From Candidatus Omnitrophota bacterium (lineage in GTDB: Bacteria; Omnitrophota; Gorgyraeia; Gygaellales; Profunditerraquicolaceae), in the NCBI GenBank assembly GCA_041650295.1, contig JBAZLM010000004.1:51860-115859 (forward strand): a stretch of 64,000 nucleotides of DNA, read 5' to 3'. The position numbers and the translations under genes are program-made. This document shows positions 13,875-37,612 of this stretch, in pieces; within the stretch, counting starts at the first letter, position 1, and each line of letters starts with the position of its first letter. The notes beneath the pieces were generated by a model, which was not told the DNA's origin, searched no databases, and saw only the letters and a list, made by a program, of their open reading frames with translations.

Positions 13875-16800
13875 ATGAAATTTAAGTCTTCAAAACTATT
13901 TAAAATCATTGCTTTGTTGATCTGTTTTGTGCTGTGCTTTGAGCAATCTGGCTTTGCGCAAATTGCCGCTCAACTGGATATCTCAGGCAAGTTATCTGGC
14001 TTGGTTAATTCCATCGCCCAGGACAAATTTCGCCCCCTACATCTGCGTTATCTTCAGTATGATACTAAACTCAATAACTTTAAGCTTCTTCTGGATAAGG
14101 GTAGCTCTAAAGAACTCTCTAAACCTTTTATCGAGCAATCCACTAAAACATTACTAAACTACTTCTTAGCCGGAGTCACTTTACCTAATGACACCTTTTG
14201 GGTAAACCTAAGACCGGATTCTCCAGATAACGTCATTGACCCAGCTTTAGCTCAAACCGACATCGGTCGCATTATGCTAGAAGCTGACGTCCAGCTTAAA
14301 AAAGATACGGCTAGCTTTACTTCTCCCAACACCCCAGAAGGCAAACAATACTGGGATAAGCTCTATACTAAAGCCGGAGAACTCTTTGGCTCTCAAAACA
14401 TCACTATCCCCACCTTAACCCGTCCCTGGATAGTCCCCAACGAGATCATCATCCGTGAGACTATTGATAACGCCTATATCTATAAAGCTACCCTAAAAGT
14501 CATGTTGGAAGATGATTACTTAAAAGAAGGTAAAGGTATCGGCACCGGTATAGATTACTCCTTCAAAGATGAAAAATTAAAACAACTCAACCAATACTCA
14601 TCTGAACTTATCCGCCAGTTAATCATTCCCAAACTAACCAAAGAGATCAACACCTCAAAACGCTACGCTAACCTGCGTCAGGTATACTACTCGTTAATCT
14701 TAGCCCAATGGTTTAAACAGAGATTTGCTAACAACTCTGGAGCTTATTCCAAACTAATCAACCAGAAAAACCTCACTAACCTAACCTCTAAAACCAGCTG
14801 GAGCAAGGATACTTACTTCCAGCAATACCAAAAGTCCTTTAAAGACGGGGAATACAATATCAAAACCCCGGTATCTACCCCTTACGGCCAGGTGATCAGG
14901 AGCTATTTTTCGGGAGGGATCAGGCCTATACCGCAAATTCCTGCTCCTGGAGAAGTATCGCAAGATGGTTTAGTTACTTCAGTAAAAGGGGGAGAATTAT
15001 TTGCAACGGTTACCGGAAGCGATAAGCTGGCAGGGGTTAGCATCGATGATGGAGTAGTAAAAACTACTGATCAGGCTCAGCCATCAAATGGATTTAAAAT
15101 AGAGGATCAAACTACCCCTCCAAAAGTTGAGAATGGTATCTCCGTTAGAAGAGTTGATCTATCCAAATTACCAGTAGGAACGATTATTAAATATAGAATT
15201 TCAAATGATAATTGGAATTATACCTTAAGAGTCGAAGCTAATGGAAGAGTTAGTATCTGGTTGAGGGAAGATCAAGGAAGAATAACCGCGTCGATTAAAG
15301 CTATTGGGAGCAGAGTTCCTTCACTTACCCCGGGCGATGCATATGATGCAGATTTTTTCGGAGAAATAGAACCTGGCGTATTAGCCTATCAGCCGTATTT
15401 TAATCAAACTGATATAGCTGGCAGCAAGGTGCGAGAATTAGTATCCATCGGTGATTATCCTATTCAAGCTACTCCGGAAGACATTATGGTCTATTTGCCT
15501 GATGGAAAAACTCAATTGCCTCGAGAAAAGCCACGGGCATTGCAAGATAAATTTAAGCGTAAAGTCAAAGAGCTAAATGAATTTATTGTTCATCATGGTA
15601 TTCCCGGAGAAAACCCGTTGGAGGCTAACGGATTTGAATTTTTGGTAAAAAGCGGGATAACTAAGGTGGAGATCTTGGCAGAGCGTTTAGGAATGGATAA
15701 GGATAGCCTTGAGGAGATTCTTAGCGCGGTTGAAGAGCAAAAAGGATGGGACATTATTGAAAAGACGATTGATACTTCGACGTTTAGTTTTGCTTTTGAA
15801 AAATTGGCAAAACTACAGGCCGAAAAGAATCTTTATCCAAAACCGCAAAAAACAATTAAGGAAAAGGCCTATGAATTTAAAGATAAAGTTATCAAATTTG
15901 TAAAAGATGAAACTGGCGCGTTGCAGCTAACAGGCTATCGCCAAGATAAAAAATTTAATCAAAAAATTGCAATGGATAAAAAGCTAGCAGGTTTTTATGC
16001 GATTGCGGAAGACCTACTTGAACAACTCCAAAAATTTCCAGATAAACAAGATCTAGTAATTGAGCTTATTGAAAATAAATTTAATGCATTAGTTAGGGAA
16101 TTTCCAAAACAACGCATAGAATTAAATAATGCTAAGAATGAACTTGTTAATGAGCTTGCTATTAATTTGTCATCTGGGCAGCAAGAAAGCATATATTTAC
16201 ACGGTTATTATGAGATTTTAAAAAATATTCTAAATAAATTAATCCCTTGGACGGATGATTTAAAAAAGAAAAACCCTGATTCAGAGTTTATTTTTGTGGC
16301 CAGAGATGCCGGATATATCTATTCGGTATTTAATGCTTTAGGAAAATTAGGTAAGGAGAAAGCCGAAGGATTTGTATATTATTTAAGCCGCGCTTCTATG
16401 TCTGAAGATTTAATTCGCAACGGTCCTTATGATACTGCAAGACGCATGATTAATCAAGCCCACTCAGATACAAAAACCGATAACATTAATGAGCTAACCG
16501 GAAATATTAGAAAAGAATTTAAAGATTATTTAGAACAGGACGATAGGTCTTTTTTGGATGAAACATCCCGTAAGGAATATTTAGAGTTTAAGAATATGGT
16601 GATTAAAGTTAATAGTGAGCTTAAAGCTTTAGGCTATGATCAATTGCAGAAACTAGTTTTGGTTGAGACAGGATTTAAAGGTACGATGCCGTTTTTGATA
16701 AAATTTATTTTAGATTTAGATAAAACGGATGAACAGTTAGCTAATGAAGCAAAAGAAAACGGTGGACAGGAAAATATTCAAGTCGCTATTTTAGAACCTA

Positions 16801-19800
16801 GGGATATTCCTGCTTTTACCGATGGTGTTTATGGCTTAACTGCAGAACAAGCTGAAACTGAGATGAATAAATTTGAAGATTTTTGGGGAGGTCAAGCAGT
16901 AGAAACTCCTGAGAGTGTGGTGGATCTCTTAGAAAAAGAAGATATCTCTCACCCGATAGAGTTTAACTTAATTGATTCAAGGGTAGAAAGAAATAGCAAT
17001 CCTGTTGAGTTGTTAAAATATTTTGTTAATCAGCTAGTAGTTGGGTTAGAAACAATTGAATATTATAAAAAAACTAGAAAGGTTGATGTTGAAAAGCCAG
17101 TGAATAAGTCCTTAGCACAGTTATCTCCTATTGCTGCGACTAAAATTATTGGCTCTGCGCTTGACAAAGGTAATAATTCTTTAGATGGACTGATTGCAGA
17201 AACCCCGGATTATACGGGAAAATTAGTTCAGTTGCAAAATCCCAAACAGATGAGCGCTGGAAATTTTGACGGTACTAGCCATCTGCAATTTACTGATGAT
17301 CCTCAGGGAAAAGCGGGGCAGGTTTGGTTATTTAAAGGTTATCCTCGGCAGAAATGGCATCGCGCTTTAGTTGATGAATTTGTTTATCATATAGCGGAAA
17401 AGCTTGGTTTAAAAAGTGCAATACCGGTTTTTGCCGGGCGGATTAAAAATGGATATATGACCGAGTTTGGAATGTTTATGCGCTGGGAGGAGAACATTGG
17501 TTCTTTGTATGAAGTTTATAGAGGTGATTTTATCCAAAAATTAAGTGAGAATAAAGAAAATCTTAAAACAGTTTTAAGGGAACAGGTCCTAGATTGGCTA
17601 GTTTCACAGCATGATTCCCATTCTCGGAATTTTCTTATTGCTGACGATAAAGACAAAAGTCTTATTCCGATTGATTTTTCACAGGCATTTAAGTTTTTAG
17701 GCAAAGATGAGCTTTCGCTTGATTACAATCCTAATGGTGATGTTAATGGCTACAATAATGTTGCCTACATGCCGATCTATAATCTTATTTATCAAGCAAT
17801 AATTAATAAAGAGATTGATTTTACCCTAACTGAGGCCTGGGAAGTTGTGCAGGAGGTGTTAGAGCGCGTAGAAGAAATGGATACTGATGAATATATTCAG
17901 GCTTTAAAACCTTATGCTGAATTTAGATTTAAAATAATGAAGGATGCTAGTTGGAGTATTAGAAATAGCGATGAATTTTTAAAGTTAGCCCGGGAAAGAA
18001 AAGTTAATATGCGTAAAGATTTCGAAAAGTTTTATAAAAAGCTCGGTTTTTCTAGTGAGACTGATTATCGTTTTAGTTTGCTGGAAATCATGGAGAACCC
18101 CCTCCAAGAGAAGCAAGAATTTTATGTCGATCAATTTAATGCGCTCTGGATTTTTAATGAAAATCAAGATTTGGCTACCAAACCTTATAAGTCTTTAGCG
18201 GCAAAAACTTATCATCAATTTATGGGAAAAGTTTTAGATCGCAATAGTATCGTTTTAGAAACAACTTTTAAAGCTAAAGATGGTCGCATTCGCACTGGAA
18301 CGATGCAAAAAGTTTTTTATCAGGAGCCCTCAGCCAATAAACAATTAAAAGAATTGAATCTTGCGGATTTCAGAGATTGGAGCCAAAACCGGGTATCTAT
18401 AAAATTTTGGGGGCTGGAACCGCCAAAGATTAAGCAAGTTTTGGAAGAGATGGTGATTGATTGGTTATTTTCTAATTACAGCAGTACCGAATCAACCTGG
18501 TTTGAACATGGGTACGCTAAATTCTATTTAATTTGTTTAGATGATAAATCGGATTCTTTTAAAGATTTTCCCAATGACAGGCTTGAGGCGAAAAAGGATT
18601 CTGATGATAAAATAAAACCACCTTTTGCTTACAATTTAGTTAAATATTTAGCTCTCCAAAATCGTCTTTCTATGGATCTGATTGAAGAAATATTGAAAAA
18701 AATTGAAAGTATTCCGGATAACGAAGTTGAAGAACTAATTCGTCCGCTAGCCAAAAGTTATGTTGCTACTAACCCTGATAAGTTTAAGCGTCCGGAAGAT
18801 TTTATAAAAGCATTTTTATCTAGAAAAGACAATTTACGTAAGGATTTTAAAGAATTTTTTCATCAAAATTATTTATTAAATACACCGTTTAATTCTCAAG
18901 TACAAACTCATCAGGCGATGACAGATAAATATATTATTTCCTCAGATCTCTATCAACAGATACATAATGCCCGAGGTGATCAAACCGCGATTATTAAGCT
19001 AATTAACCAACGTTTTAATGAATTAGCCGAAAATTTATCCTGGGAGGAAGTGGAACCTCTAGCGCAAAAAAAGGAAGAGCTGATTATCCGGATCACTGGA
19101 CCGCCAGTTTTAACGAATCAAGATGTACAAATGGATTTACAAACTAATCCTATTGTGCGAGATCGGAAGTTTAAAGCTATGTCTAGACTGTTGGCTTCTT
19201 GGGTTTATTCTTTAAGAGAGCAAAAACCTGATTATTATCTGATTGGTTTAGCCCGTGACGGAGGATATATTCCTTTAATTGATCAATTATTTAATTATGC
19301 TGGAATAATTCCTAAAACTGGCTCTAGTGTTTATCATTTGAGCTGCCCCCGGATGTCAGGAGAGACGCAAAAGAAAATTTATAGCATGATGTATGAAATT
19401 ATTGCAAATGCATTAAAAAATGTTGAGCATAATGATATCCAAGGTTTATATGCGCAAATTCGTTTAGGATTTAATAAAGCAATGGCTGAGAATTCAAGTT
19501 TTTTAGTGATGGTTACAGAAATTCGGAAAGAATTGATAGGGCTTGGATTTGATCAAAAAAATAAAATTGTCATTACGGATACTGGATTTTTTGGAACAAT
19601 TGCTTTCTATATCAAATGTATTTTAGATATGGATAAAAGCCAAGCAAGATTGGAACAAGAATTAGTGGATAATCATGGTCATGAAAATATTGAAGTTGCC
19701 ATTTTACAACCTAGCAGTATAGAAAGTTTTAACAAAAGTTTATTTGGTTTTGATACAACGAGACTTACTCAAGATGATCAGGCTATCGCCAGAAAGTTAG

Positions 19801-22400
19801 AAACAATTTTTGGTTTGCGCAATGTTTTAGGAAATGAATTTGAGAGCAATAAAATTATGCATCCGGTAAAATTTAATGAAGACAATTGGCTGATCGAAGA
19901 TACTGATGCCAGCTCACAATTGGAATTATTTTACCAGCAGATCATGATTGCTCAAATGGTGGATGCATTTATTGCTAGAGAGGGGATTGATTACCCGGGG
20001 CAAGATACTTTGGCTGGTTTTGGTGGCATTGATTTAGACGAAAAGATTGCCGCCCAGGCATTTTTTGATCAACCGGATAATGGTGAGTTAAAAGTTATTA
20101 TTGACCGTTGGTTTAAAGAGTTAATCGCTAAAGATGGATATGTAGCATTTAAGAAATTATATGATGCTTGCGGCCGGTTAAGCTTTATTAAATTATTGCG
20201 TTTAAAATTTCCCCTGCTTTCCACTAACATAATTTTGACCCCGAATCAAGAATTTAAAAGACAATCTCTGTTGGTGCAGTATCTACTTAAACGACAAGGT
20301 ATTCTAACCAGCAGTGTCCCGGTAGCTAGAAAAAAAGACCCAAAGAGCTTACCTTTTGAAGCGGATAAAAAATTCAGTGGTGTGTTATTGGATGTTGATG
20401 GCACAATTACCATGCCCGGCGGAGAGATATCTGATGCGATCATCGAAAAAGTTGAGGAAATGATTACCCGTGGAAACAAGGTAGGAATAGTTACTGGCAG
20501 AAGAGCGCTATCCCCGGATGTTTTTGAGGAGGTAATTAAATTAAAGGTTAACCGACAGGCGTTAAATAATCTTTACATTTTTACCCAGGATGGGGCTCAA
20601 GGTTATAGTGTAGGTGATACTAATCTGCGATGGGAATTTAAAACCGGTTTAAATGAACGAAAAAAGATTTTAAAGAAGTTGGAGCGAAGCGAATTGGTTA
20701 AGTTCCATTGCCAAATTATTCCTGAATCAGCAAAATTAATTTTTAAAATGGATAATCATGACGATACGGACGATTTAATTTTAACTTTAAAGATTGCTTT
20801 AGTTGATTTAGGTTTGGATGCTAAATATTCTGTGGTGGATGCCGGGGCAAATGTGCATTTAATCGCTAGTCAAGCGGACAAAGGAGCGGCAGCCAAAAAA
20901 TTTAGCAATGTAACCGGTTTAGCTCAAGAAAATATATTAAAAATTGGAGACAACTATAATTTGGATGGCAATGATTATCCAATGTTGGCTTTGCCCGGAG
21001 GGGTGGGAGTCAATGATAGCGAGACTACGCTTTGGTTGCTAGATACCTATTTTAAAAATACTGTATTGACCCCAAATATACAATTATTTGCACTTACCGA
21101 TGAGGGGACTGATCCTTTAAGTAATTCTCTGCATTTTGTTAACAATAAAGACATTACGAGTGTAATTTTACCCAAAAACAAATTCGCTGCTTCGGTGGAC
21201 ATGTTAAAAGTGTTTGAAGAATCTTTGCAATACGAATTAGGTAAAGTTCCGCTTTTTTCTATTTTCGGTTCACTTTCTTATGCGCGTGATAAAGAAGGTA
21301 ATATTATTTGGGATACGATCGGTGATTTTGATATTAAGCTTTATACTGAAGAATTATTATGGAATGATGATATCACAGAGATAAAACTTAACTTTTTAAA
21401 TGCTCTTAAAAATCTGGGAATAAAAGTGGATATTCAGGGTAGTGATTCTCCATCTGGATCAGGGCGTGATCTGAGTTCATTAAACTGGGGTATTCTGGAC
21501 AAGCAGGGCAAAAAATATATAGTACATATTATTAATTTTAGAACTAAAGATCTACTTTCTAAAAATGACGCTTTTGTAAATATCCGCAGTAATTTATTTT
21601 ATGGAGATACGCAAGCTTTAAATAATGCGTTGAACATTGTTGGCATTGAAACGGCGGTTGAACAAGCTGCGGTTAGCTGCGAAAAAACGATCTCAATTAT
21701 AAGCAATGCGATAGCTAAAGTAGAAAATATTCGGTCAGAGAATGTGAAACTATTAAAGAGATTATACCAAATTGCTTATGTACAAGGTCGAGAAGCTGAT
21801 TTTTATTGGCTTTTAGAAAAATACCGGAAATTAAGTTTAGAATTTAATCAACAGGATTTAGCTGACGCTTGTAATGAGGGAATCTCTAAACTTATTATGA
21901 ATCCTGAAGAATTACGTGCACTGTTACGTGATAGACTTAAAGCAAATATTAAATTAGTTGATAGTAAATCTATGGCTACTGTTGCGATTCCTGGCGCCGC
22001 ATCGGATAAAGGTGGCGTTGACTTTCGCGGTCTGCCAATTGGCATCCAAAGTCAAAGGATGATTGGCGCATCAGCAGTATTGATTCCGTCTCCAAGGTTA
22101 GATCAAGAGTGGAGCCAGATTGAGCGCATGCTTAACCAAGGAATTATCCCTTCTATTGAAAGGCTGAAAGATTATCTCTCTTTATCTTGTAAGGGCGCAG
22201 ATTGTTCGGCTAGAGTTGATCAAACCTTAAGCGGAATTGCCAATATTCTTAGAATTGAAGAAGAGAGCTTAACCCCCACTGATGCAGCTTTAAAACAACT
22301 GTTAATTTTACTGGAATCTAATCAACCGGCGAATCAATTACAGTTAGCTTTAACCAAAATTCAAGCATCAGAAAAGATGCCGGAGTTAGCTATTCATTAA
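13875..22400 (+). CDS. Giant secreted multidomain protein (2841 aa) with a signal peptide, two paralogous internal domains, a PI3K/PI4K-like atypical kinase motif set, a HAD-superfamily phosphatase domain and a possible nucleotidyltransferase-like segment
   Basis: Single uninterrupted 8526-nt ORF. The N-terminus has a signal peptide (MKFKSSKLFKIIALLICFVLCFEQSGFAQ). The clearest domain is HAD, with motif I LLDVDGTIT, motif II S/T (VGIVTGR), motif III K (DKGAAAKKF) and motif IV GDNYNLDGNDYPML. A kinase-like region has WLFKG, a DSHSRN catalytic loop and IDFS. GS...DFD suggests an NTase fold. Paralogous segments share ARDAGY/ARDGGY and TGF(K/F)GT motifs. Confidence 0.85.
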   Translation: MKFKSSKLFKIIALLICFVLCFEQSGFAQIAAQLDISGKLSGLVNSIAQDKFRPLHLRYLQYDTKLNNFKLLLDKGSSKELSKPFIEQSTKTLLNYFLAGVTLPNDTFWVNLRPDSPDNVIDPALAQTDIGRIMLEADVQLKKDTASFTSPNTPEGKQYWDKLYTKAGELFGSQNITIPTLTRPWIVPNEIIIRETIDNAYIYKATLKVMLEDDYLKEGKGIGTGIDYSFKDEKLKQLNQYSSELIRQLIIPKLTKEINTSKRYANLRQVYYSLILAQWFKQRFANNSGAYSKLINQKNLTNLTSKTSWSKDTYFQQYQKSFKDGEYNIKTPVSTPYGQVIRSYFSGGIRPIPQIPAPGEVSQDGLVTSVKGGELFATVTGSDKLAGVSIDDGVVKTTDQAQPSNGFKIEDQTTPPKVENGISVRRVDLSKLPVGTIIKYRISNDNWNYTLRVEANGRVSIWLREDQGRITASIKAIGSRVPSLTPGDAYDADFFGEIEPGVLAYQPYFNQTDIAGSKVRELVSIGDYPIQATPEDIMVYLPDGKTQLPREKPRALQDKFKRKVKELNEFIVHHGIPGENPLEANGFEFLVKSGITKVEILAERLGMDKDSLEEILSAVEEQKGWDIIEKTIDTSTFSFAFEKLAKLQAEKNLYPKPQKTIKEKAYEFKDKVIKFVKDETGALQLTGYRQDKKFNQKIAMDKKLAGFYAIAEDLLEQLQKFPDKQDLVIELIENKFNALVREFPKQRIELNNAKNELVNELAINLSSGQQESIYLHGYYEILKNILNKLIPWTDDLKKKNPDSEFIFVARDAGYIYSVFNALGKLGKEKAEGFVYYLSRASMSEDLIRNGPYDTARRMINQAHSDTKTDNINELTGNIRKEFKDYLEQDDRSFLDETSRKEYLEFKNMVIKVNSELKALGYDQLQKLVLVETGFKGTMPFLIKFILDLDKTDEQLANEAKENGGQENIQVAILEPRDIPAFTDGVYGLTAEQAETEMNKFEDFWGGQAVETPESVVDLLEKEDISHPIEFNLIDSRVERNSNPVELLKYFVNQLVVGLETIEYYKKTRKVDVEKPVNKSLAQLSPIAATKIIGSALDKGNNSLDGLIAETPDYTGKLVQLQNPKQMSAGNFDGTSHLQFTDDPQGKAGQVWLFKGYPRQKWHRALVDEFVYHIAEKLGLKSAIPVFAGRIKNGYMTEFGMFMRWEENIGSLYEVYRGDFIQKLSENKENLKTVLREQVLDWLVSQHDSHSRNFLIADDKDKSLIPIDFSQAFKFLGKDELSLDYNPNGDVNGYNNVAYMPIYNLIYQAIINKEIDFTLTEAWEVVQEVLERVEEMDTDEYIQALKPYAEFRFKIMKDASWSIRNSDEFLKLARERKVNMRKDFEKFYKKLGFSSETDYRFSLLEIMENPLQEKQEFYVDQFNALWIFNENQDLATKPYKSLAAKTYHQFMGKVLDRNSIVLETTFKAKDGRIRTGTMQKVFYQEPSANKQLKELNLADFRDWSQNRVSIKFWGLEPPKIKQVLEEMVIDWLFSNYSSTESTWFEHGYAKFYLICLDDKSDSFKDFPNDRLEAKKDSDDKIKPPFAYNLVKYLALQNRLSMDLIEEILKKIESIPDNEVEELIRPLAKSYVATNPDKFKRPEDFIKAFLSRKDNLRKDFKEFFHQNYLLNTPFNSQVQTHQAMTDKYIISSDLYQQIHNARGDQTAIIKLINQRFNELAENLSWEEVEPLAQKKEELIIRITGPPVLTNQDVQMDLQTNPIVRDRKFKAMSRLLASWVYSLREQKPDYYLIGLARDGGYIPLIDQLFNYAGIIPKTGSSVYHLSCPRMSGETQKKIYSMMYEIIANALKNVEHNDIQGLYAQIRLGFNKAMAENSSFLVMVTEIRKELIGLGFDQKNKIVITDTGFFGTIAFYIKCILDMDKSQARLEQELVDNHGHENIEVAILQPSSIESFNKSLFGFDTTRLTQDDQAIARKLETIFGLRNVLGNEFESNKIMHPVKFNEDNWLIEDTDASSQLELFYQQIMIAQMVDAFIAREGIDYPGQDTLAGFGGIDLDEKIAAQAFFDQPDNGELKVIIDRWFKELIAKDGYVAFKKLYDACGRLSFIKLLRLKFPLLSTNIILTPNQEFKRQSLLVQYLLKRQGILTSSVPVARKKDPKSLPFEADKKFSGVLLDVDGTITMPGGEISDAIIEKVEEMITRGNKVGIVTGRRALSPDVFEEVIKLKVNRQALNNLYIFTQDGAQGYSVGDTNLRWEFKTGLNERKKILKKLERSELVKFHCQIIPESAKLIFKMDNHDDTDDLILTLKIALVDLGLDAKYSVVDAGANVHLIASQADKGAAAKKFSNVTGLAQENILKIGDNYNLDGNDYPMLALPGGVGVNDSETTLWLLDTYFKNTVLTPNIQLFALTDEGTDPLSNSLHFVNNKDITSVILPKNKFAASVDMLKVFEESLQYELGKVPLFSIFGSLSYARDKEGNIIWDTIGDFDIKLYTEELLWNDDITEIKLNFLNALKNLGIKVDIQGSDSPSGSGRDLSSLNWGILDKQGKKYIVHIINFRTKDLLSKNDAFVNIRSNLFYGDTQALNNALNIVGIETAVEQAAVSCEKTISIISNAIAKVENIRSENVKLLKRLYQIAYVQGREADFYWLLEKYRKLSLEFNQQDLADACNEGISKLIMNPEELRALLRDRLKANIKLVDSKSMATVAIPGAASDKGGVDFRGLPIGIQSQRMIGASAVLIPSPRLDQEWSQIERMLNQGIIPSIERLKDYLSLSCKGADCSARVDQTLSGIANILRIEEESLTPTDAALKQLLILLESNQPANQLQLALTKIQASEKMPELAIH

Positions 22401-31682: not shown

Positions 31683-31901
31683 CGGATTCTATCTTGGATA
31701 TTACCAAATCACCTGTTACGCTTTATAAATTTTACCTTTCGCTTCCGGCGCTCAAACTTTTCGCCGTGTGCTGCGGCTTACGTCTCGCTACGGCTTTCTT
31801 CCTTACGCTAGATGGACACCGCCTTCGCTCGACGTAATTCCTTGCACACCGTTGGCGAAAACTTTGAACGCGCCTCCAGCAAAAGGTAAAATATAATTAA
31901 G

Positions 31902-33242
31902 ATGATAAAAATATATTTAGCTTCGCAATCAAAAGCTAGAAAGAAGTTATTAGAGAGATTCGGTTTAAAGTTTCAGGTTTTTCCTTCCCGTGTTCAAGAG
32001 GTACAATCCCGTGGTAAATTAACCTTTGAGCAGTTAGTTAAGCACAACGCTAAAATAAAAGCTAAAGATGTAGCCGCAAAAATAAAAGAAGGAATTATTA
32101 TTGCTGCAGATACTATTTGCGTGCAGGATGGCAAAATTTTTGGCAAACCCAAAGATATGCAAGATGCCTGCAGCATGCTTAAAAAATTATCGACTAAACC
32201 GCAGTGGCTTTACTCTGGTTTAGTGGTAGTAAAAAAAGAGAAAACTCAGACGCGCATTTGTCTGGCATCTGAAAAAACCAAAGTTTATATGCACAGATTA
32301 ACTGACCAACAAGTTAATAATTATTTTAAACATGTATCTCCATTAGATAAGGCGGGAAGTTTTGATATATCAGGTAAAGGGGCAACATTTATTAAAAAAG
32401 TAGACGGTTGTTATTATAATGTGATTGGTTTGCCTTTGGCTAAGCTCTATCAAATTTTTAAGAAGCTTGGACTTTTTATGATTATTTTTTCAGTATTCAT
32501 TATTAACGGTTGTTCTACTGAATATAATTTGGTAACTAAGCAAGAGGAAAAATATTACTATAGTACAGATAAAGAAGTTTCGATGGGTCAGTCAATTGAT
32601 CGGCAAGTTCAGAAACAGTTAAAATTTACCAATGATCCTTTAGAAAAAAAACGAGTTGAAGATATTGGGAAAAAAATTGCTGCGGTAAGTGATCGTAAAG
32701 AAATTGATTATTATTTTCAAGTTTTAGATGACGATACGGTTAATGCGGTTTCTTTACCGGGTGGCTATATTTATGTAAATACTGGATTATTAGAAAAAAT
32801 TTCTAATGATGATGAACTGGCTTGTGTTTTAGCGCATGAGGTAGGTCATATTGTAGCTCGACATAGTATAAAAAAATTGCAAGCCATGCAAAGTTATTCT
32901 ATTCTTAGATTGTTAGTGGCGGTAGCTCCTGGCACTGGGGAGGTGGGTACAGCTGCCGATGTTGCTTTTAATCAATTTCTTTTAGGTTATAGTCGGGAAG
33001 ATGAATTACTAGCTGATCAATTGGGTGCTCGTTATGCGAAATTAGCCGGTTATGATCCGCATGGGATGATTGATTTTCTAAATAAATTACAAGAGATAAA
33101 TCGTAGAATGCCTTTGCAGGAACGTACATATTATAAAACTCACCCCTATGTACCTGATCGCGTTAGAGTAGTTAAGCAGGAGATTGGAGAGGCAATTGAT
33201 TTTGGGGATTACATAAATATCGAGCAGAAGGTGCATGAATAA
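31902..33242 (+). CDS. maf: In-frame fusion of Maf (nucleotide pyrophosphatase) with a signal-anchored M48 family zinc metallopeptidase
   Basis: Residues 1-190 carry Maf motifs (LASQS, ADTIC, GLPL). There is no stop before a lipoprotein-like signal MIIFSVFIINGC. The remainder has HEVGH and the downstream REDELLADQLG...AGYDP motif of M48 (BepA/Oma1-like). Confidence 0.7.
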   Translation: MIKIYLASQSKARKKLLERFGLKFQVFPSRVQEVQSRGKLTFEQLVKHNAKIKAKDVAAKIKEGIIIAADTICVQDGKIFGKPKDMQDACSMLKKLSTKPQWLYSGLVVVKKEKTQTRICLASEKTKVYMHRLTDQQVNNYFKHVSPLDKAGSFDISGKGATFIKKVDGCYYNVIGLPLAKLYQIFKKLGLFMIIFSVFIINGCSTEYNLVTKQEEKYYYSTDKEVSMGQSIDRQVQKQLKFTNDPLEKKRVEDIGKKIAAVSDRKEIDYYFQVLDDDTVNAVSLPGGYIYVNTGLLEKISNDDELACVLAHEVGHIVARHSIKKLQAMQSYSILRLLVAVAPGTGEVGTAADVAFNQFLLGYSREDELLADQLGARYAKLAGYDPHGMIDFLNKLQEINRRMPLQERTYYKTHPYVPDRVRVVKQEIGEAIDFGDYINIEQKVHE

Positions 33243-34356
33243 GATTTTCTGTTTCTTTATATTAATCTTATTTAGTTTAGGGATAGCTCATAGTGCTATA
33301 CAAGAAAATATGAATAATCATTTAAAAGATTTAAATCAACTTAACTTAGATAATCCTTTTGGTGTGCTAGAGTTTTTGCATTGGAATCATTGTTGGAATA
33401 ATTATGAGTATTCTAAAAAGTGTGATCTTGAAAAAACCATAACTTTAATGCAAAGTGCTGGGGTGGGCTGGGTAAGGGTAGATTTTTTATGGGAAGATAT
33501 CGAGCCTGTGCAAGGCGATTTTAAATTTGCAAAGTATGATGCGATCGTTAAATTGCTTAAAGAAAAAGGTATGTATATTCTAGGTGTTTTGCAATATAAC
33601 ACTAGCTGGTCTTCTGGTTGCGGGGAATGGAATTGTCCTCCTAAAGATAATGCATTATTTGTAAATTATGCTAGCAAGGTTATTCAACGCTATAAGGAAG
33701 AGGTTAAATATTGGGAAGTTTGGAATGAACCAGATTCGGCTACCTATTGGAAAGATCAAGATGGTTTAAAGTCCTATTGTTTATTATTAAAAGATGTTTA
33801 TCTGGCAGCTAAACAAATTGATCCGCAATGTAAGATTTTAAATGGAGGGATTGCAAGCGGATTGGGAAGTATCAATCATTTGTATGATAACGGGGCTAAA
33901 GATTATTTCGATATATTAAACGTACATTTTTTTCAAAATCCTTTAAATAAAATGGCGATTAAAGCTGTGGCTAGTTATCCAAAATTAGTGCATAAAATTA
34001 TGCAGCGTAATGGTGACGGTGATAAAAAAATTTGGATTACTGAGATTGGTTCTCCGGGAGTTAAAAGAGGATTAACAGCGAATAATTGGTGGATGGGTAA
34101 AAATCCCACAGAAACTCAGCAATGCCAGTGGGTAAAGGCAGTGTATACTGAACTTTTAAAGAATCCAAATGTAGATAAGATTTTCTGGGCTTTTTTCCGC
34201 GATACCCGGGCACATTGGGATACCGGAGTAGATTATTTTGGATTAGTGCGCAAAGATTTTTCTAAAAAACCTGCATTTTACGCCTACCAGAAGTGTTTTA
34301 ATCAATGGTTAGTCGAGTATAAGAAAAGTGTCTCTAGAGAGAAGATTAGAAGATAA
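33235..34356 (+). CDS. Secreted clan GH-A glycoside hydrolase (family 5/39-like)
   Basis: Signal peptide, then an acid/base motif VWNEPD and a nucleophile motif IWITEIGSPG. Confidence 0.6.
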   Translation: MNKIFCFFILILFSLGIAHSAIQENMNNHLKDLNQLNLDNPFGVLEFLHWNHCWNNYEYSKKCDLEKTITLMQSAGVGWVRVDFLWEDIEPVQGDFKFAKYDAIVKLLKEKGMYILGVLQYNTSWSSGCGEWNCPPKDNALFVNYASKVIQRYKEEVKYWEVWNEPDSATYWKDQDGLKSYCLLLKDVYLAAKQIDPQCKILNGGIASGLGSINHLYDNGAKDYFDILNVHFFQNPLNKMAIKAVASYPKLVHKIMQRNGDGDKKIWITEIGSPGVKRGLTANNWWMGKNPTETQQCQWVKAVYTELLKNPNVDKIFWAFFRDTRAHWDTGVDYFGLVRKDFSKKPAFYAYQKCFNQWLVEYKKSVSREKIRR

Positions 34357-34362
34357 CTTTTG

Positions 34363-34443
34363 TGCGGGAGGAGGGAGTTGAACCCTCAAGGATTTCTCCA
34401 CACGCTTCTGAGACGTGCGCGTATGCCATTCCGCCACTCCCGC
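34363..34443 (-). tRNA. tRNA-Leu(CAG)
   Basis: Hand-folded from the reverse complement. Acceptor stem is GCGGGAG/CTCCCGC. The D arm resembles E. coli tRNA-Leu (TGGCGGAAT-GG). Anticodon stem is CACGT/GCGTG with loop CTCAGAA. There is an extra arm and a T-loop GGTTCAACTCC. No CCA is encoded. Confidence 0.8.
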
Positions 34444-34567: not shown

Positions 34568-35524
34568 GTGTTTTTAGAGCATTTTAAGATTACTACTTTA
34601 GCCATGGCTCAGATATTTATTTTGGGAGCTTTGGGTTATATTTTAGTGAAGAAAAATATACTTTCGCATACGGGTTTGGATGCTTTGAGTCGCTTAGTCA
34701 TCCAGATTGTTTTTCCAGCGTTAATTATCACTCAGTTATTGCATAATTTCAGTTTTACTCTGTATCCGAACTGGTGGATCTTTCCGGTAATTAGCATACT
34801 GATTACTGCGGTTAGTTTAGCTTTAGGAATACTTTTACTCAAGTTTATAAAATTAAAGAATAATAAACTACAGTTTTTAAGCTTAGTGGGTTTTCAAAAT
34901 TCTGGATATCTACCGTTAGCTTTGGCGGCGGCGATTTTTTCTGGTCAGGATTTAAGTAACATTTTTATTTAAATATTTTTATTTTTATTAGGTTTTGATC
35001 TGGTCGCTTGGTCGTTGGGGATATATCTGTTAACTTATGAAAAAGAGTCTAGGTTTAAGTTGCAGCATATTTTCAGTCCCCCGGTAATTGCTAGCTTGTC
35101 TACTTTGATTTTTATTGCTCTTGGATTAAATAAAATTGTTCCTAGCGTTTTATTTAAGCCCGTAGAGATGATCGGAAATTGTACTTTGCCTTTAGCATTA
35201 ATGGTTGTAGGGGGGAATATTGCTTTAGTTGAGTTAAAGAATATCAATAAGAAGGTTTTATCTGTTTTTCTTTTCGGCAAATTAATTATTCTGCCGGCAT
35301 TAGGTTTATGGATAGTACTTAAATTGGCGCTGCCGCAGTTATTTGGCTTCTTAATTATCATGCAATTGGCGATGCCTTCGGCTACTTCTTTATCGGTAAT
35401 TGTGCGCCGTTATAATCGAGAAGATGCTTTAATTAGTCAGGGAATATTTTTTAGCCATATTATTAGTTTAATTACTATTCCGCTATTTTTAGGTTTATAT
35501 TTATCGCTGGTTGTGCTAAAATGA
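34568..35524 (+). pseudogene. AEC (auxin efflux carrier/MleP-like) family permease interrupted by one in-frame TAA at 34970-34972
   Basis: ORFs 34568..34972 and 35015..35524 are in the same frame. Translation across the TAA is continuous membrane protein (...LSNIFI*IFLFLLGFDLVAWSLGIYLL...). Combined length of about 318 aa is typical of AEC transporters. Confidence 0.6.
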
Positions 35525-35973
35525 GTAAATCGATTATCACCAATCGCAAGGCTTACCGGGATTATGAAGTATTAGAGGCTTTTGAGTGCGGAATTGAACT
35601 TAAAGGCTCAGAGGTAAAGTCTTTACGCGACGGTAAAATTAATTTAGATGACAGTTTTGCCCGTGCAGAACAAGATGAGTTATTTTTGTATAATGCACAT
35701 ATAAGTCCTTATGCACAGGCTAGTTATTTAAATGTTGAGCCAAATCGACCACGTAAGTTGCTTTTACATAAGGGGCAGATTTTAAGGGTTATTGGTAAGC
35801 TTACCCAAAAAGGTTTAGCCTTAATTCCTTTAAAACTTTATTTTAATGACCGAGGTTTTGTAAAAGTAGAATTAGCGTTGGGTAAAGGTAAAAAACTTTA
35901 CGATAAACGAGTAACGATTAAGCGCAGAGAAACTGATCTTGAAATGCGCCGGGCAATAAAGAATAGAAGGTGA
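35521..35973 (+). CDS. smpB: SsrA-binding protein SmpB
   Basis: SmpB N-terminal motif NRKAYRDYEVLE...GIELKGSEVKS and a basic C-terminal tail. Immediately upstream of tmRNA. Confidence 0.9.
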   Translation: MSKSIITNRKAYRDYEVLEAFECGIELKGSEVKSLRDGKINLDDSFARAEQDELFLYNAHISPYAQASYLNVEPNRPRKLLLHKGQILRVIGKLTQKGLALIPLKLYFNDRGFVKVELALGKGKKLYDKRVTIKRRETDLEMRRAIKNRR

Positions 35974-35979
35974 TTTTTT

Positions 35980-36381
35980 GGGGGTGAAAGGGTTCGACTT
36001 GAGATGGTCGGATAAGAGTAGCATGCCGCGGATGTAAGGTTAGCCGCGTTAAAAATCCTTGCACAATCTAAACGCAAACACAAACGTGTTCAACCGTTTA
36101 GCACCAAAGGCAGCAATGCCTTTGATGCCTGCGGGCGTACAAGCCTTAGCGTTTAATTAAACGTTAAGCCTCTAGCCGTTTTTGCCTACGAAACGGATTA
36201 GGGCCTTAGTAGGATAGCTTCGTCAGGTTAGCCTTTGTGGATGAAGCGAGATTTTAAAGGCTGCTCCTTGCAAATCCTGTCTGTAGAAGTTGCAAGGTTA
36301 AGACAAATTACAAGGCTAAGCATGTAGTGACTTTTATTTGATTACTTAAGGACCCCGGTTCAATTCCGGGCACCTCCACCA
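35980..36381 (+). ncRNA. ssrA: tmRNA (ssrA)
   Basis: The 5' GGGGGUG pairs with the 3' CACCUCC including the G3:U wobble. The 3' tRNA-like domain is GGACCCCGGUUCAAUUCCGGGCACCUCCACCA with encoded CCA. It lies 7 nt after the smpB stop. An internal ORF-like tag frame runs 36074-36160. Confidence 0.85.
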
Positions 36382-36529: not shown

Positions 36530-37612
36530 ATGATTAAAAAAATTTATATTTTATTTTTTCTAGTAACATTATTAATCTCCGGCTGTGCTACTATTCCTAC
36601 CGGTGAAAATATTGCCTCTTATTCTATCGCCGGACAAACTTATTATCCTTTAGTGAGTTTATGTGATCTGCGCGGGGTAGCGATGCAGTATGATCCGCTA
36701 ATACGTACAGTTTATTTAAATAAAGAAAATAAATCAGTAAATTTAAGAGCCGGAGATAGTTTAATTTTAGTAAATGATAATATTATGCATTTGAACTCTC
36801 CGGTAGATCTTTATCAGGGAACAATTGTAGTGCCACGTCAGTTTAAAGAACAGGTTTTTGATTTACTATTTAAGCCAGTAGTTGGCCCGCATCGTCGGGT
36901 TGGAGTGGGTAAGATTCGTTTGAGTAAAGTGGTGATTGATGCTGGGCATGGTGGCAATGATCCTGGAGCAATTGGTAAGAGTGGTTTGCGAGAAAAGGAT
37001 GTAAATTTAGATATTGCTAAAAGATTAAATGAACTTTTACGCTCAGAAGGGGTAGCTACGGTGTTAACTCGCTCTAGTGATAAATTTATTCCACTATCCA
37101 CGCGGGTGGGTATCGCTAATAAATCAGGAGCGGATTTATTTATTTCGGTGCATGCTAATGCTGCGCGTTCGCGAGCTTTAAATGGTTTTGAAGTTTATTA
37201 TGTTGCCCCGAGTGTTAGTGACGCTAAACGGGCGGCTTTAACTGCCAGAATTGTTTCTTTAAATTTAAAAAATGCGACCTTTGCTAGTAACTCTGGTGAT
37301 CTGCGCACAATTCTTTGGGATATGATTTATGCTAATAGCCGAGCAGAGTCTATAGAATTATCTAAGACGCTATGTAAAATTATGGATGCTAGTATTGATG
37401 CTAATATTTTAGGGGTAAAGAATGCTCGTTTCCAAGTTTTAAAAGGAATTAGAATGCCGGGAATATTGATAGAAGTAGGATTTGTTTCTAATTTAAACGA
37501 AGAAAGATTATTAAAAACCAGCACATATCGTCAAAAATTAGCCGAAGGCATAGTAGAAGGCCTAAGGGATTATTCACAAGATATGGCCTTAGTGGAGTTA
37601 ACTTCAAGATGA
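36530..37612 (+). CDS. amiC: N-acetylmuramoyl-L-alanine amidase (Amidase_3, AmiC-like) lipoprotein
   Basis: Lipobox LLISGC. Catalytic domain motif VVIDAGHGGNDPGAIG...VHANA. Confidence 0.8.
   Translation: MIKKIYILFFLVTLLISGCATIPTGENIASYSIAGQTYYPLVSLCDLRGVAMQYDPLIRTVYLNKENKSVNLRAGDSLILVNDNIMHLNSPVDLYQGTIVVPRQFKEQVFDLLFKPVVGPHRRVGVGKIRLSKVVIDAGHGGNDPGAIGKSGLREKDVNLDIAKRLNELLRSEGVATVLTRSSDKFIPLSTRVGIANKSGADLFISVHANAARSRALNGFEVYYVAPSVSDAKRAALTARIVSLNLKNATFASNSGDLRTILWDMIYANSRAESIELSKTLCKIMDASIDANILGVKNARFQVLKGIRMPGILIEVGFVSNLNEERLLKTSTYRQKLAEGIVEGLRDYSQDMALVELTSR

Follow-up and report, generated by a model that had tools for sequence, protein, structure and literature searches.

A conserved Maf-M48 protease fusion in the Omnitrophota whose junction looks like an internal lipoprotein signal

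A 64,000-nt stretch of a Candidatus Omnitrophota genome (contig JBAZLM010000004.1, hereafter the window) contains a single open reading frame (ORF) that encodes a Maf nucleotide pyrophosphatase followed by an M48 metallopeptidase. We argue that this is almost certainly a real fused gene derived from two adjacent genes. Judging by its sequence across homologues, the junction between the two halves looks like a cleavable signal peptidase II (SPase II) signal rather than a permanent transmembrane anchor. The original prediction for this DNA had pointed out the in-frame fusion, and had described the hydrophobic segment at the junction both as resembling a lipoprotein signal and as a membrane anchor. 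The fusion is genuine and the resemblance holds up well, but the anchor is not the reading we favor. All coordinates are positions in the window, and residue numbers are those of the 446-aa fused protein (Table 1).

The junction at 32427-32540 translates as GLPLAKLYQIFKKLGLFMIIFSVFIINGCSTEYNLVTK, in one frame with no stop and no frame change. The Maf half is recognized by Pfam Maf (PF02545) over residues 3-188, which covers profile positions 1-186 of 187 (E 1.5e-52, 178.4 bits against a cut-off of 27), and by the NCBIfam model TIGR00172 (161.1 bits against 117.15). Residues 5-182 of the Bacillus subtilis Maf (189 aa) align to residues 4-186 of the query, so the Maf half is complete and there is no linker before the hydrophobic segment. 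Pfam Peptidase_M48 (PF01435) matches residues 246-426 (E 1.4e-33, 116.7 bits against 20.3). The HEVGH motif is at residues 312-316 (32835-32849) and the third zinc ligand is Glu368 (33003-33005). The profiles for the specific proteases BepA (NF052400, 117.9 against 570 bits) and LoiP (NF052399, 53 against 365 bits) fall below their equivalog cut-offs. The similarity to them is confined to the protease domain, and the TPR domain is absent from the window protein. The nearest solved structures to the M48 half are 3C37 (1e-37) and the BepA protease domain (1e-19).

Both active sites are intact by comparison with characterized relatives. The Maf signature of YhdE is Ser10, Arg13, Glu33, Lys52, Asp70 and Lys82 (Tchigvintsev et al., PMC3899018). 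The window protein has all six (S10, R13, E33, K53, D70, K82). They are kept in all of the 120 homologues that cover those columns, with a single exception that has Thr at S10. The triad that marks the YhdE subfamily is R12-T71-Q153, and the R12A mutant of YhdE is still active (PMC3899018). The fused family shares Thr71 with YhdE and has A-T-Q instead of R-T-Q, with the Gln present in 118 of 120 homologues, and the window itself has A12-T71-S157. Ser157 (32370-32372) is nearly unique to the window Maf and stands at the base-recognition position of YhdE Gln153; it could be a specificity change or a sequencing error. In the protease half H312-E313-x-x-H316 and E368 are invariant across the 120 homologues. 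Both enzymes are under purifying selection, and since the catalytic signatures of Maf and M48 are conserved we predict that both halves are active.

The fusion is not peculiar to this genome. The homologues were taken as the best 120 clusters of a database of 5.8 billion proteins (NCBI, JGI, ENA and Logan assemblies), and the locus was also scanned in one genome per GTDB species, which gave 58 loci. At least 120 clusters with 71-85% identity and lengths of 432-464 aa all carry both PF02545 and PF01435. A one-ORF Maf-M48 gene is found in 57 of the 58 Omnitrophota species-level genomes, and none of those 57 has a stop between the domains. The window protein is 100% identical to P0001, which comes from a Candidatus Omnitrophota metagenome-assembled genome (MAG). 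When proteins were clustered at 50% identity a fused orthologue with just 40% identity was recovered (P0122), and its synteny matches that of the window (Pribosyltran - fusion - Mem_trans - SmpB). The architecture had been called unusual. It is instead fixed in a large Omnitrophota clade, and several cluster members have already been named "Maf and M48 domain-containing protein" by NCBI. In the window clade the gene is uniformly fused, and no standalone Maf in the set exceeds 50% identity to its Maf; the fusion there is old and fixed. Near-identical fusions also occur on contigs labelled 'Candidatus Pacebacteria', 'uncultured Planctomycetales' and 'Candidatus Methanoperedens' (L015, L001/L002, others, and P0012). 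These are probably mis-binned or mislabelled Omnitrophota.

The junction has the parts expected of a lipoprotein signal. Among the 120 homologues the net charge over the eight residues that precede the hydrophobic stretch is +2 to +4 in 117. The uncharged stretch varies in sequence and is 12-24 residues long, with a mode at 15 and a second group at 20, and mostly it falls within 13-15. That length is short for a permanent transmembrane helix. The Gly203-Cys204 pair is invariant and the S-T-E-Y-N-L that follows it is essentially invariant. Position -2 of the lipobox is S, A or T in most homologues. We tested the core of PROSITE PS51257, {DERK}(6)-[LIVMFWSTAG](2)-[LIVMFYSTAGCQ]-[AGS]-C, and it fits 111 of the 120 junctions. 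An SPase II signal is favored over an anchor because G-C is invariant, the PS51257 core matches nearly every junction, and the stretch is short and varies freely. The signal is out of place by the usual N-terminal rule: its cysteine is residue 204, behind a complete Maf, where ordinary lipoproteins have it within about the first 15-35 residues. The lipoprotein pathway itself appears to be in use, because very similar signals are found at the N-termini of three ordinary lipoproteins that the window also encodes (at 36530, 45966 and 46674). The topology implied by the original prediction, a cytoplasmic Maf and a periplasmic M48, is consistent with all of this.

The origin of the fusion can be read from related genomes, where a comparison of orthologues, proposed along with the original prediction, turns up both the fused and the separate state. 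In three unfused loci (L066, L067 and L068) the syntenic order is maf (192 aa), a spacer, an M48 lipoprotein gene (272-275 aa) and DUF192. The spacer is 5-11 nt long with a GAGG Shine-Dalgarno (SD) sequence, and the Maf ends in …MLRQFGIHAL*. The M48 lipoproteins begin MTRFFRGLGLGAALWACGGC… or MTARLSLACCFLPVILLLSGC…, each with its own Met and basic n-region, and they carry the same type of motif after the cysteine as the fused protein does. The upstream neighbors (LptF/G, ComF-like and Pribosyltran) are syntenic as well. The proteins of these loci are orthologous to the window halves, with 44% identity for Maf and 41% for M48. This is a Rosetta stone arrangement, with both halves found as separate, adjacent, co-oriented genes in related genomes. 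Relative to these loci the window lacks the stop, the spacer, the SD sequence and the n-region of the protease, and the tail of Maf supplies an n-region in its place. Since unfused maf and M48 neighbors are seen at the syntenic locus, the fusion arose when the maf stop and the spacer of 5-11 nt were lost and the protease came into frame. The basic Maf tail (…L-x-x-[M/I]-[FL]-K-K-[LF]-G…) replaced the original n-region of the protease signal. The nearest standalone M48 proteins outside the gene cluster (P0130, P0126 and P0272) are not encoded beside maf and were set aside as uninformative on the origin.

The same Maf has also been joined to a second partner. A search seeded with the Maf-DUF192 protein P0220 recovers orthologous Omnitrophota Maf in three architectures: standalone, Maf-M48 and Maf-DUF192. 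The standalone form is 192-193 aa long with the C-terminus …GLPLAKLAxMLKKFGVHAL*. There are at least 19 clusters of Maf-DUF192, which are 324-336 aa long (P0220, P0284-P0300; L060:2169-3149, L069:4001-4987). They have the same Maf orthologue with the MLKKFG tail, and then an h-region and a cleavage motif. They differ from Maf-M48 in their partner and in their junctions, which mostly have an AXA-like motif of the SPase I type rather than a lipobox: …CHA or …VQA stands ahead of the predicted cut, as in …FLLSGVCHA followed by GAVPPQVCH. They also differ in being recent and scattered in the Maf tree. Two members carry the M48-type lipobox instead of the SPase I motif. One of them, P0284, has the M48 lipobox signal ahead of DUF192, and it shares 96% identity in the Maf domain with a Maf-M48 protein. 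Maf-DUF192 arose from the maf-M48-DUF192 cluster through loss of the M48 body (L069). Identity between standalone and fused Maf reaches 88%, and the architectures are interleaved in a neighbor-joining tree of Maf domains, which is a rough guide with short branches and no support values. Because identity across architectures is high and the architectures are interleaved, fusion in the Maf-DUF192/standalone part of the phylum is recent and recurrent. The claim of recurrence rests on the pairwise identities (88-96% between architectures) and not on the tree.

We propose the following route for the fused protein. Translation would begin at the maf ATG (31902) and the Maf domain would fold in the cytoplasm. 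The hydrophobic segment (residues 189-203) would engage the signal recognition particle (SRP) and Sec as an N-in/C-out signal, and the M48 domain would be translocated to the periplasm. Lgt would lipidate the invariant Cys204 and LspA would cut ahead of it. The products would be made 1:1: a mature M48 lipoprotein, and a Maf with a spent 15-residue hydrophobic C-terminal tail. That tail could retain Maf at the membrane, or it could be trimmed, for instance by signal-peptide peptidases, and Maf would be freed. Export, lipidation, cleavage and the fate of Maf are all steps that we infer from sequence. We are fairly confident that the M48 domain is exported by the internal signal from the full-length polypeptide. 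Separation of the halves by LspA is a claim we lean toward with less assurance, and we would say the same of the whole chain of fusion, export, lipidation and cleavage, which is probable without being strongly so. The idea that cleavage still operates is supported by the canonical lipobox, which has been kept over deep divergence, and by the DUF192 fusions, which keep motifs of the SPase I type. One can go further and treat the ORF as a polyprotein that LspA resolves, with M48 outside and Maf anchored to the inner membrane by its tail. Such fusions would be recurrent, with M48 and with DUF192 (through SPase I), and the Maf tail would have been pre-adapted as an n-region, so that fusions by stop loss are viable. 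On this wider reading we are evenly balanced.

There is some precedent for the proposed route from the laboratory. 'Internalized' prolipoprotein signals, in which an SPase II signal follows an N-terminal extension, were engineered by Hayashi et al. in 1985 (J Biol Chem 260:5753) and, going by the title of that study, were reportedly modified and processed in Escherichia coli and B. subtilis. The window arrangement differs from those laboratory constructs in being natural, fixed in a lineage and located behind a folded enzyme of 190 aa.

It must be noted that several points weigh against the route described above. We know of no natural substrate with a 190-aa folded N-terminal domain for which processing by LspA has been shown. 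The lipobox of the window (INGC) has Asn at -2, which is outside PS51257 and the common lipobox sets and is shared by 4 of 120 clusters, P0001 included. An AlphaFold2 (AF2) model of the full protein, built from an alignment of 67 sequences, has a mean predicted local distance difference test (pLDDT) score of 69 and falls below 50 over residues 195-219, so it adds nothing on topology. Two more points concern translation. We compared the possible internal starts in 58 sequences, the window and 57 related loci, and 34 of them keep an ATG or GTG within the tail motif 'MLKK'. If that codon were used as a start, M-L-K-K, the h-region and the lipobox would make a textbook signal. No SD-like sequence of at least 4 nt precedes the Ile or Met codon in most species, but the maf start itself lacks one in 44 of 56 genomes. 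The SD test is therefore uninformative and cannot decide the matter, and internal initiation of a leaderless-like or SD-independent kind is compatible with it.

The strongest competitor to a cleaved lipoprotein is an uncleaved bitopic protein of the inner membrane, which corresponds to the anchor of the original prediction. The segment would then remain in place as a type II signal-anchor between a cytoplasmic Maf and a periplasmic M48, whose activities might be coupled. The conserved fusion and the logic of topology apply equally to such a protein. The suboptimal Asn at -2 would suit it, and in the AF2 model the Maf helix (179-188) is almost continuous with the hydrophobic helix (192-199). 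However, the lipobox is invariant down to 40% identity and is identical to that of the unfused orthologues, which are ordinary lipoproteins. An uncharged stretch of usually 13-15 aa is short for a stable transmembrane helix, and the h-region evolves as freely as that of a signal peptide. An exchangeable partner (DUF192) and recurrent recent fusions argue against a specific coupling of Maf with M48. We regard the bitopic protein as unlikely, though it is the most probable of the alternatives. One can also imagine that the fusion exists only in this MAG, as the result of an indel introduced in sequencing or assembly or of a recent inactivating mutation that merged two genes. There is a T6 homopolymer within the junction (32485-32490), a neighboring Mem_trans gene of the same MAG has an in-frame TAA, and the window Maf has its Q157S change. 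Against this, 57 of 58 species and at least 120 clusters have the two halves in frame, in assemblies made independently of one another and with junctions that differ in sequence. No remnant of a spacer is left, and both halves are strongly conserved. More than 170 homologues that diverge in sequence and were assembled independently have the same in-frame fusion, which excludes an indel error in the T6 run. An artefact or pseudogene is thus a scenario to which we give almost no credence.

The original prediction had offered another way out, in which the upstream stop was lost and the protease is translated independently from the ATG of Met193 (32478). The stop loss stands, given the unfused syntenic neighbors. 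Independent translation from this ATG fares badly. In close homologues the position is occupied by S, L, F, I or T, and Met is confined to the window and a few relatives. No internal ribosome-binding site was found, in that there is no SD-like sequence of at least 4 nt at 3-13 nt upstream of 32478. A start here would yield MIIFSVFIINGC, a signal without a basic n-region. A more general version is that internal initiation is the main source of protease, whether at this ATG, at the near-cognate ATT of Ile185 (32454) or at the 'MLKK' ATG in other species, and that the fusion product is minor or tolerated. The position of Ile185 is nine residues after GLP and within 'M-L-K-K'. It is ATG in 33 of the 58 sequences and GTG in one, and these would give a perfect signal peptide. 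An Ile codon is found in 22 (ATT 15, ATC 5, ATA 2), and the remaining two have AGC and TTA. Alignments of standalone M48 homologues begin at their Met1-3 and at query residues 187-193, which also suits an internal start. SD sequences are often absent in genes of this lineage, so a missing one is not decisive, and some species have purine-rich AGR-AAR codons 11-12 nt upstream. By inspection there is a mild difference in Arg codon choice (AGR vs CGN) upstream of the internal Met between the ATG and Ile species.

We argue that these observations are better explained without internal initiation. ATT, ATC and ATA are interchangeable in the window clade, so no particular near-cognate start is being selected, and seven species have no canonical in-frame start at all between GLP and the h-region. 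The MLKKFG tail is also present in standalone Mafs that have no downstream fusion. The 'MLKK' Met is therefore a Maf residue and not a dedicated start. The GAGG of the unfused spacers has been lost in the fusions. A further case is L052 (402-1316), where Maf residues ~19-186 have been deleted, including the 'MLKK' Met. Its M48 is intact and is read from the maf start codon (MRKEVYLASTSEAGRRLFKKIGIKIF…LSGCATEYN), with about 18 N-terminal Maf residues as an extended n-region. The gene upstream in L052 is an XRE-like regulator instead of the HI0933-like gene. With no stop between the halves, ribosomes that start at maf must make the fusion in any case. The fusion is very probably the sole source of the protease in the window clade, and internal initiation as the main source is an improbable alternative that we place well below the bitopic protein.

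The proposed arrangement also sets the window protein apart from known relatives of each half. The E. coli envelope proteases of the M48 family (LoiP/YggG, YcaL and BepA), along with 3C37, resemble it in fold family, in the HExxH motif with its distal Glu and in being exported, LoiP and YcaL as SPase II lipoproteins and BepA as a periplasmic protein. In none of these proteins does a cytoplasmic enzyme precede the signal peptide. On the Maf side there is, beside the house-cleaning pyrophosphatases of the YhdE type, the eukaryotic ASMTL, a Maf-methyltransferase fusion which demonstrates that Maf tolerates a C-terminal fusion (PMC3899018). In the window a predicted signal peptide connects Maf to an exported protease, whereas the partner in ASMTL is a cytoplasmic enzyme.

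Table 1. Features of the fused gene and of the gene that follows it
Feature	Position	Strand	Evidence or remark
Whole ORF: Maf - internal lipoprotein signal - M48 peptidase (predicted)	31902..33242	+	446 aa + stop; ORF listing, Pfam, NCBIfam, homologues
Maf nucleotide pyrophosphatase domain, aa 1-188	31902..32465	+	Pfam 178 bits, TIGR00172 161 bits, residue conservation
Ile185 codon ATT, not a canonical start	32454..32456	+	codon comparison, 58 sequences
Lys187-Lys188, basic end of the last Maf helix, putative n-region of the internal signal	32460..32465	+	homologue alignment
Hydrophobic h-region LGLFMIIFSVFIING, 15 uncharged residues, aa 189-203	32466..32510	+	homologue alignment
Met193, internal ATG	32478..32480	+	not conserved; no upstream SD-like sequence
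Lipobox I-N-G-C, Cys204 at 32511-32513	32502..32513	+	homologue alignment
Predicted mature M48 lipoprotein protease, aa 204-446	32511..33239	+	Pfam, conservation, structure matches
Secreted glycoside-hydrolase-like gene, weak GH10/42/39 matches	33235..34356	+	GAAGGTG SD; 8-nt overlap with the fusion stop

At least 40 related species also have the glycoside-hydrolase-like gene after the fusion, and the two probably share an operon. No DUF192 homologue was found within ~3 kb of the fusion in the window clade. Farther downstream is the Mem_trans gene (auxin-efflux-carrier family, 34568-35524), which has a single in-frame TAA at 34970-34972 (…NIFI*IFLFLLGF…). Its halves match Pfam profile positions 4-119 and 196-342. 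A pseudogene, a genuine split and a sequencing error could each account for the interruption. Between the glycoside-hydrolase-like gene and Mem_trans there is a tRNA-Leu(CAG) gene on the minus strand (34362-34443). Mem_trans is followed by smpB and then directly by the tmRNA gene (35521-36381 for the pair), with the tag ANTNVFNRLAPKAAMPLMPAGVQALAFN. Upstream, between the HI0933-like gene and maf, there is a GC-richer imperfect palindrome of ~165 nt (31729-31893) with a minimum free energy of -69 kcal/mol. Rfam gives no match for the GC-rich region at 31683-31901 with the threshold relaxed to E<=1, and neither the rest of the window nor the loci contain another copy of it. In other species this intergenic site is occupied by hairpin or inverted-repeat insertions of unrelated sequence, and it looks like a hotspot for elements resembling miniature inverted-repeat transposable elements (MITE) or repetitive extragenic palindromes (REP). 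We treat the region as an intergenic insertion that is separate from the fusion. The window also has an ORF of 2841 aa on the plus strand at 13875-22400.

The databases already contain both domains as well as the fused architecture, and this is not a new protein family. Literature searches on a Maf-M48 fusion found no paper, and those aimed at internal lipoprotein signals in nature led to nothing but a citation of the engineered-signal study (Hayashi et al. 1985). The reading of the junction appears to be undescribed, as a conserved and natural lipoprotein signal ~190 residues into a protein, built partly from the C-terminal helix of Maf. The origin in a conserved maf-M48-DUF192 cluster, and the recurrence with a second partner, appear to be undescribed as well. 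There is a practical side to this. Predictors of signal peptides and lipoproteins that consider only the N-terminus miss the exported half of such proteins, and the annotation 'septum formation protein Maf' conceals a protease. If the protein is processed as we propose, it would offer a natural system in which to study the handling of internal signals by Sec/SRP, Lgt and LspA. A signal peptidase would then act as the enzyme that resolves a polyprotein. The same processing would provide a route to a membrane-tethered form of Maf, a protein that has long been linked to division arrest.

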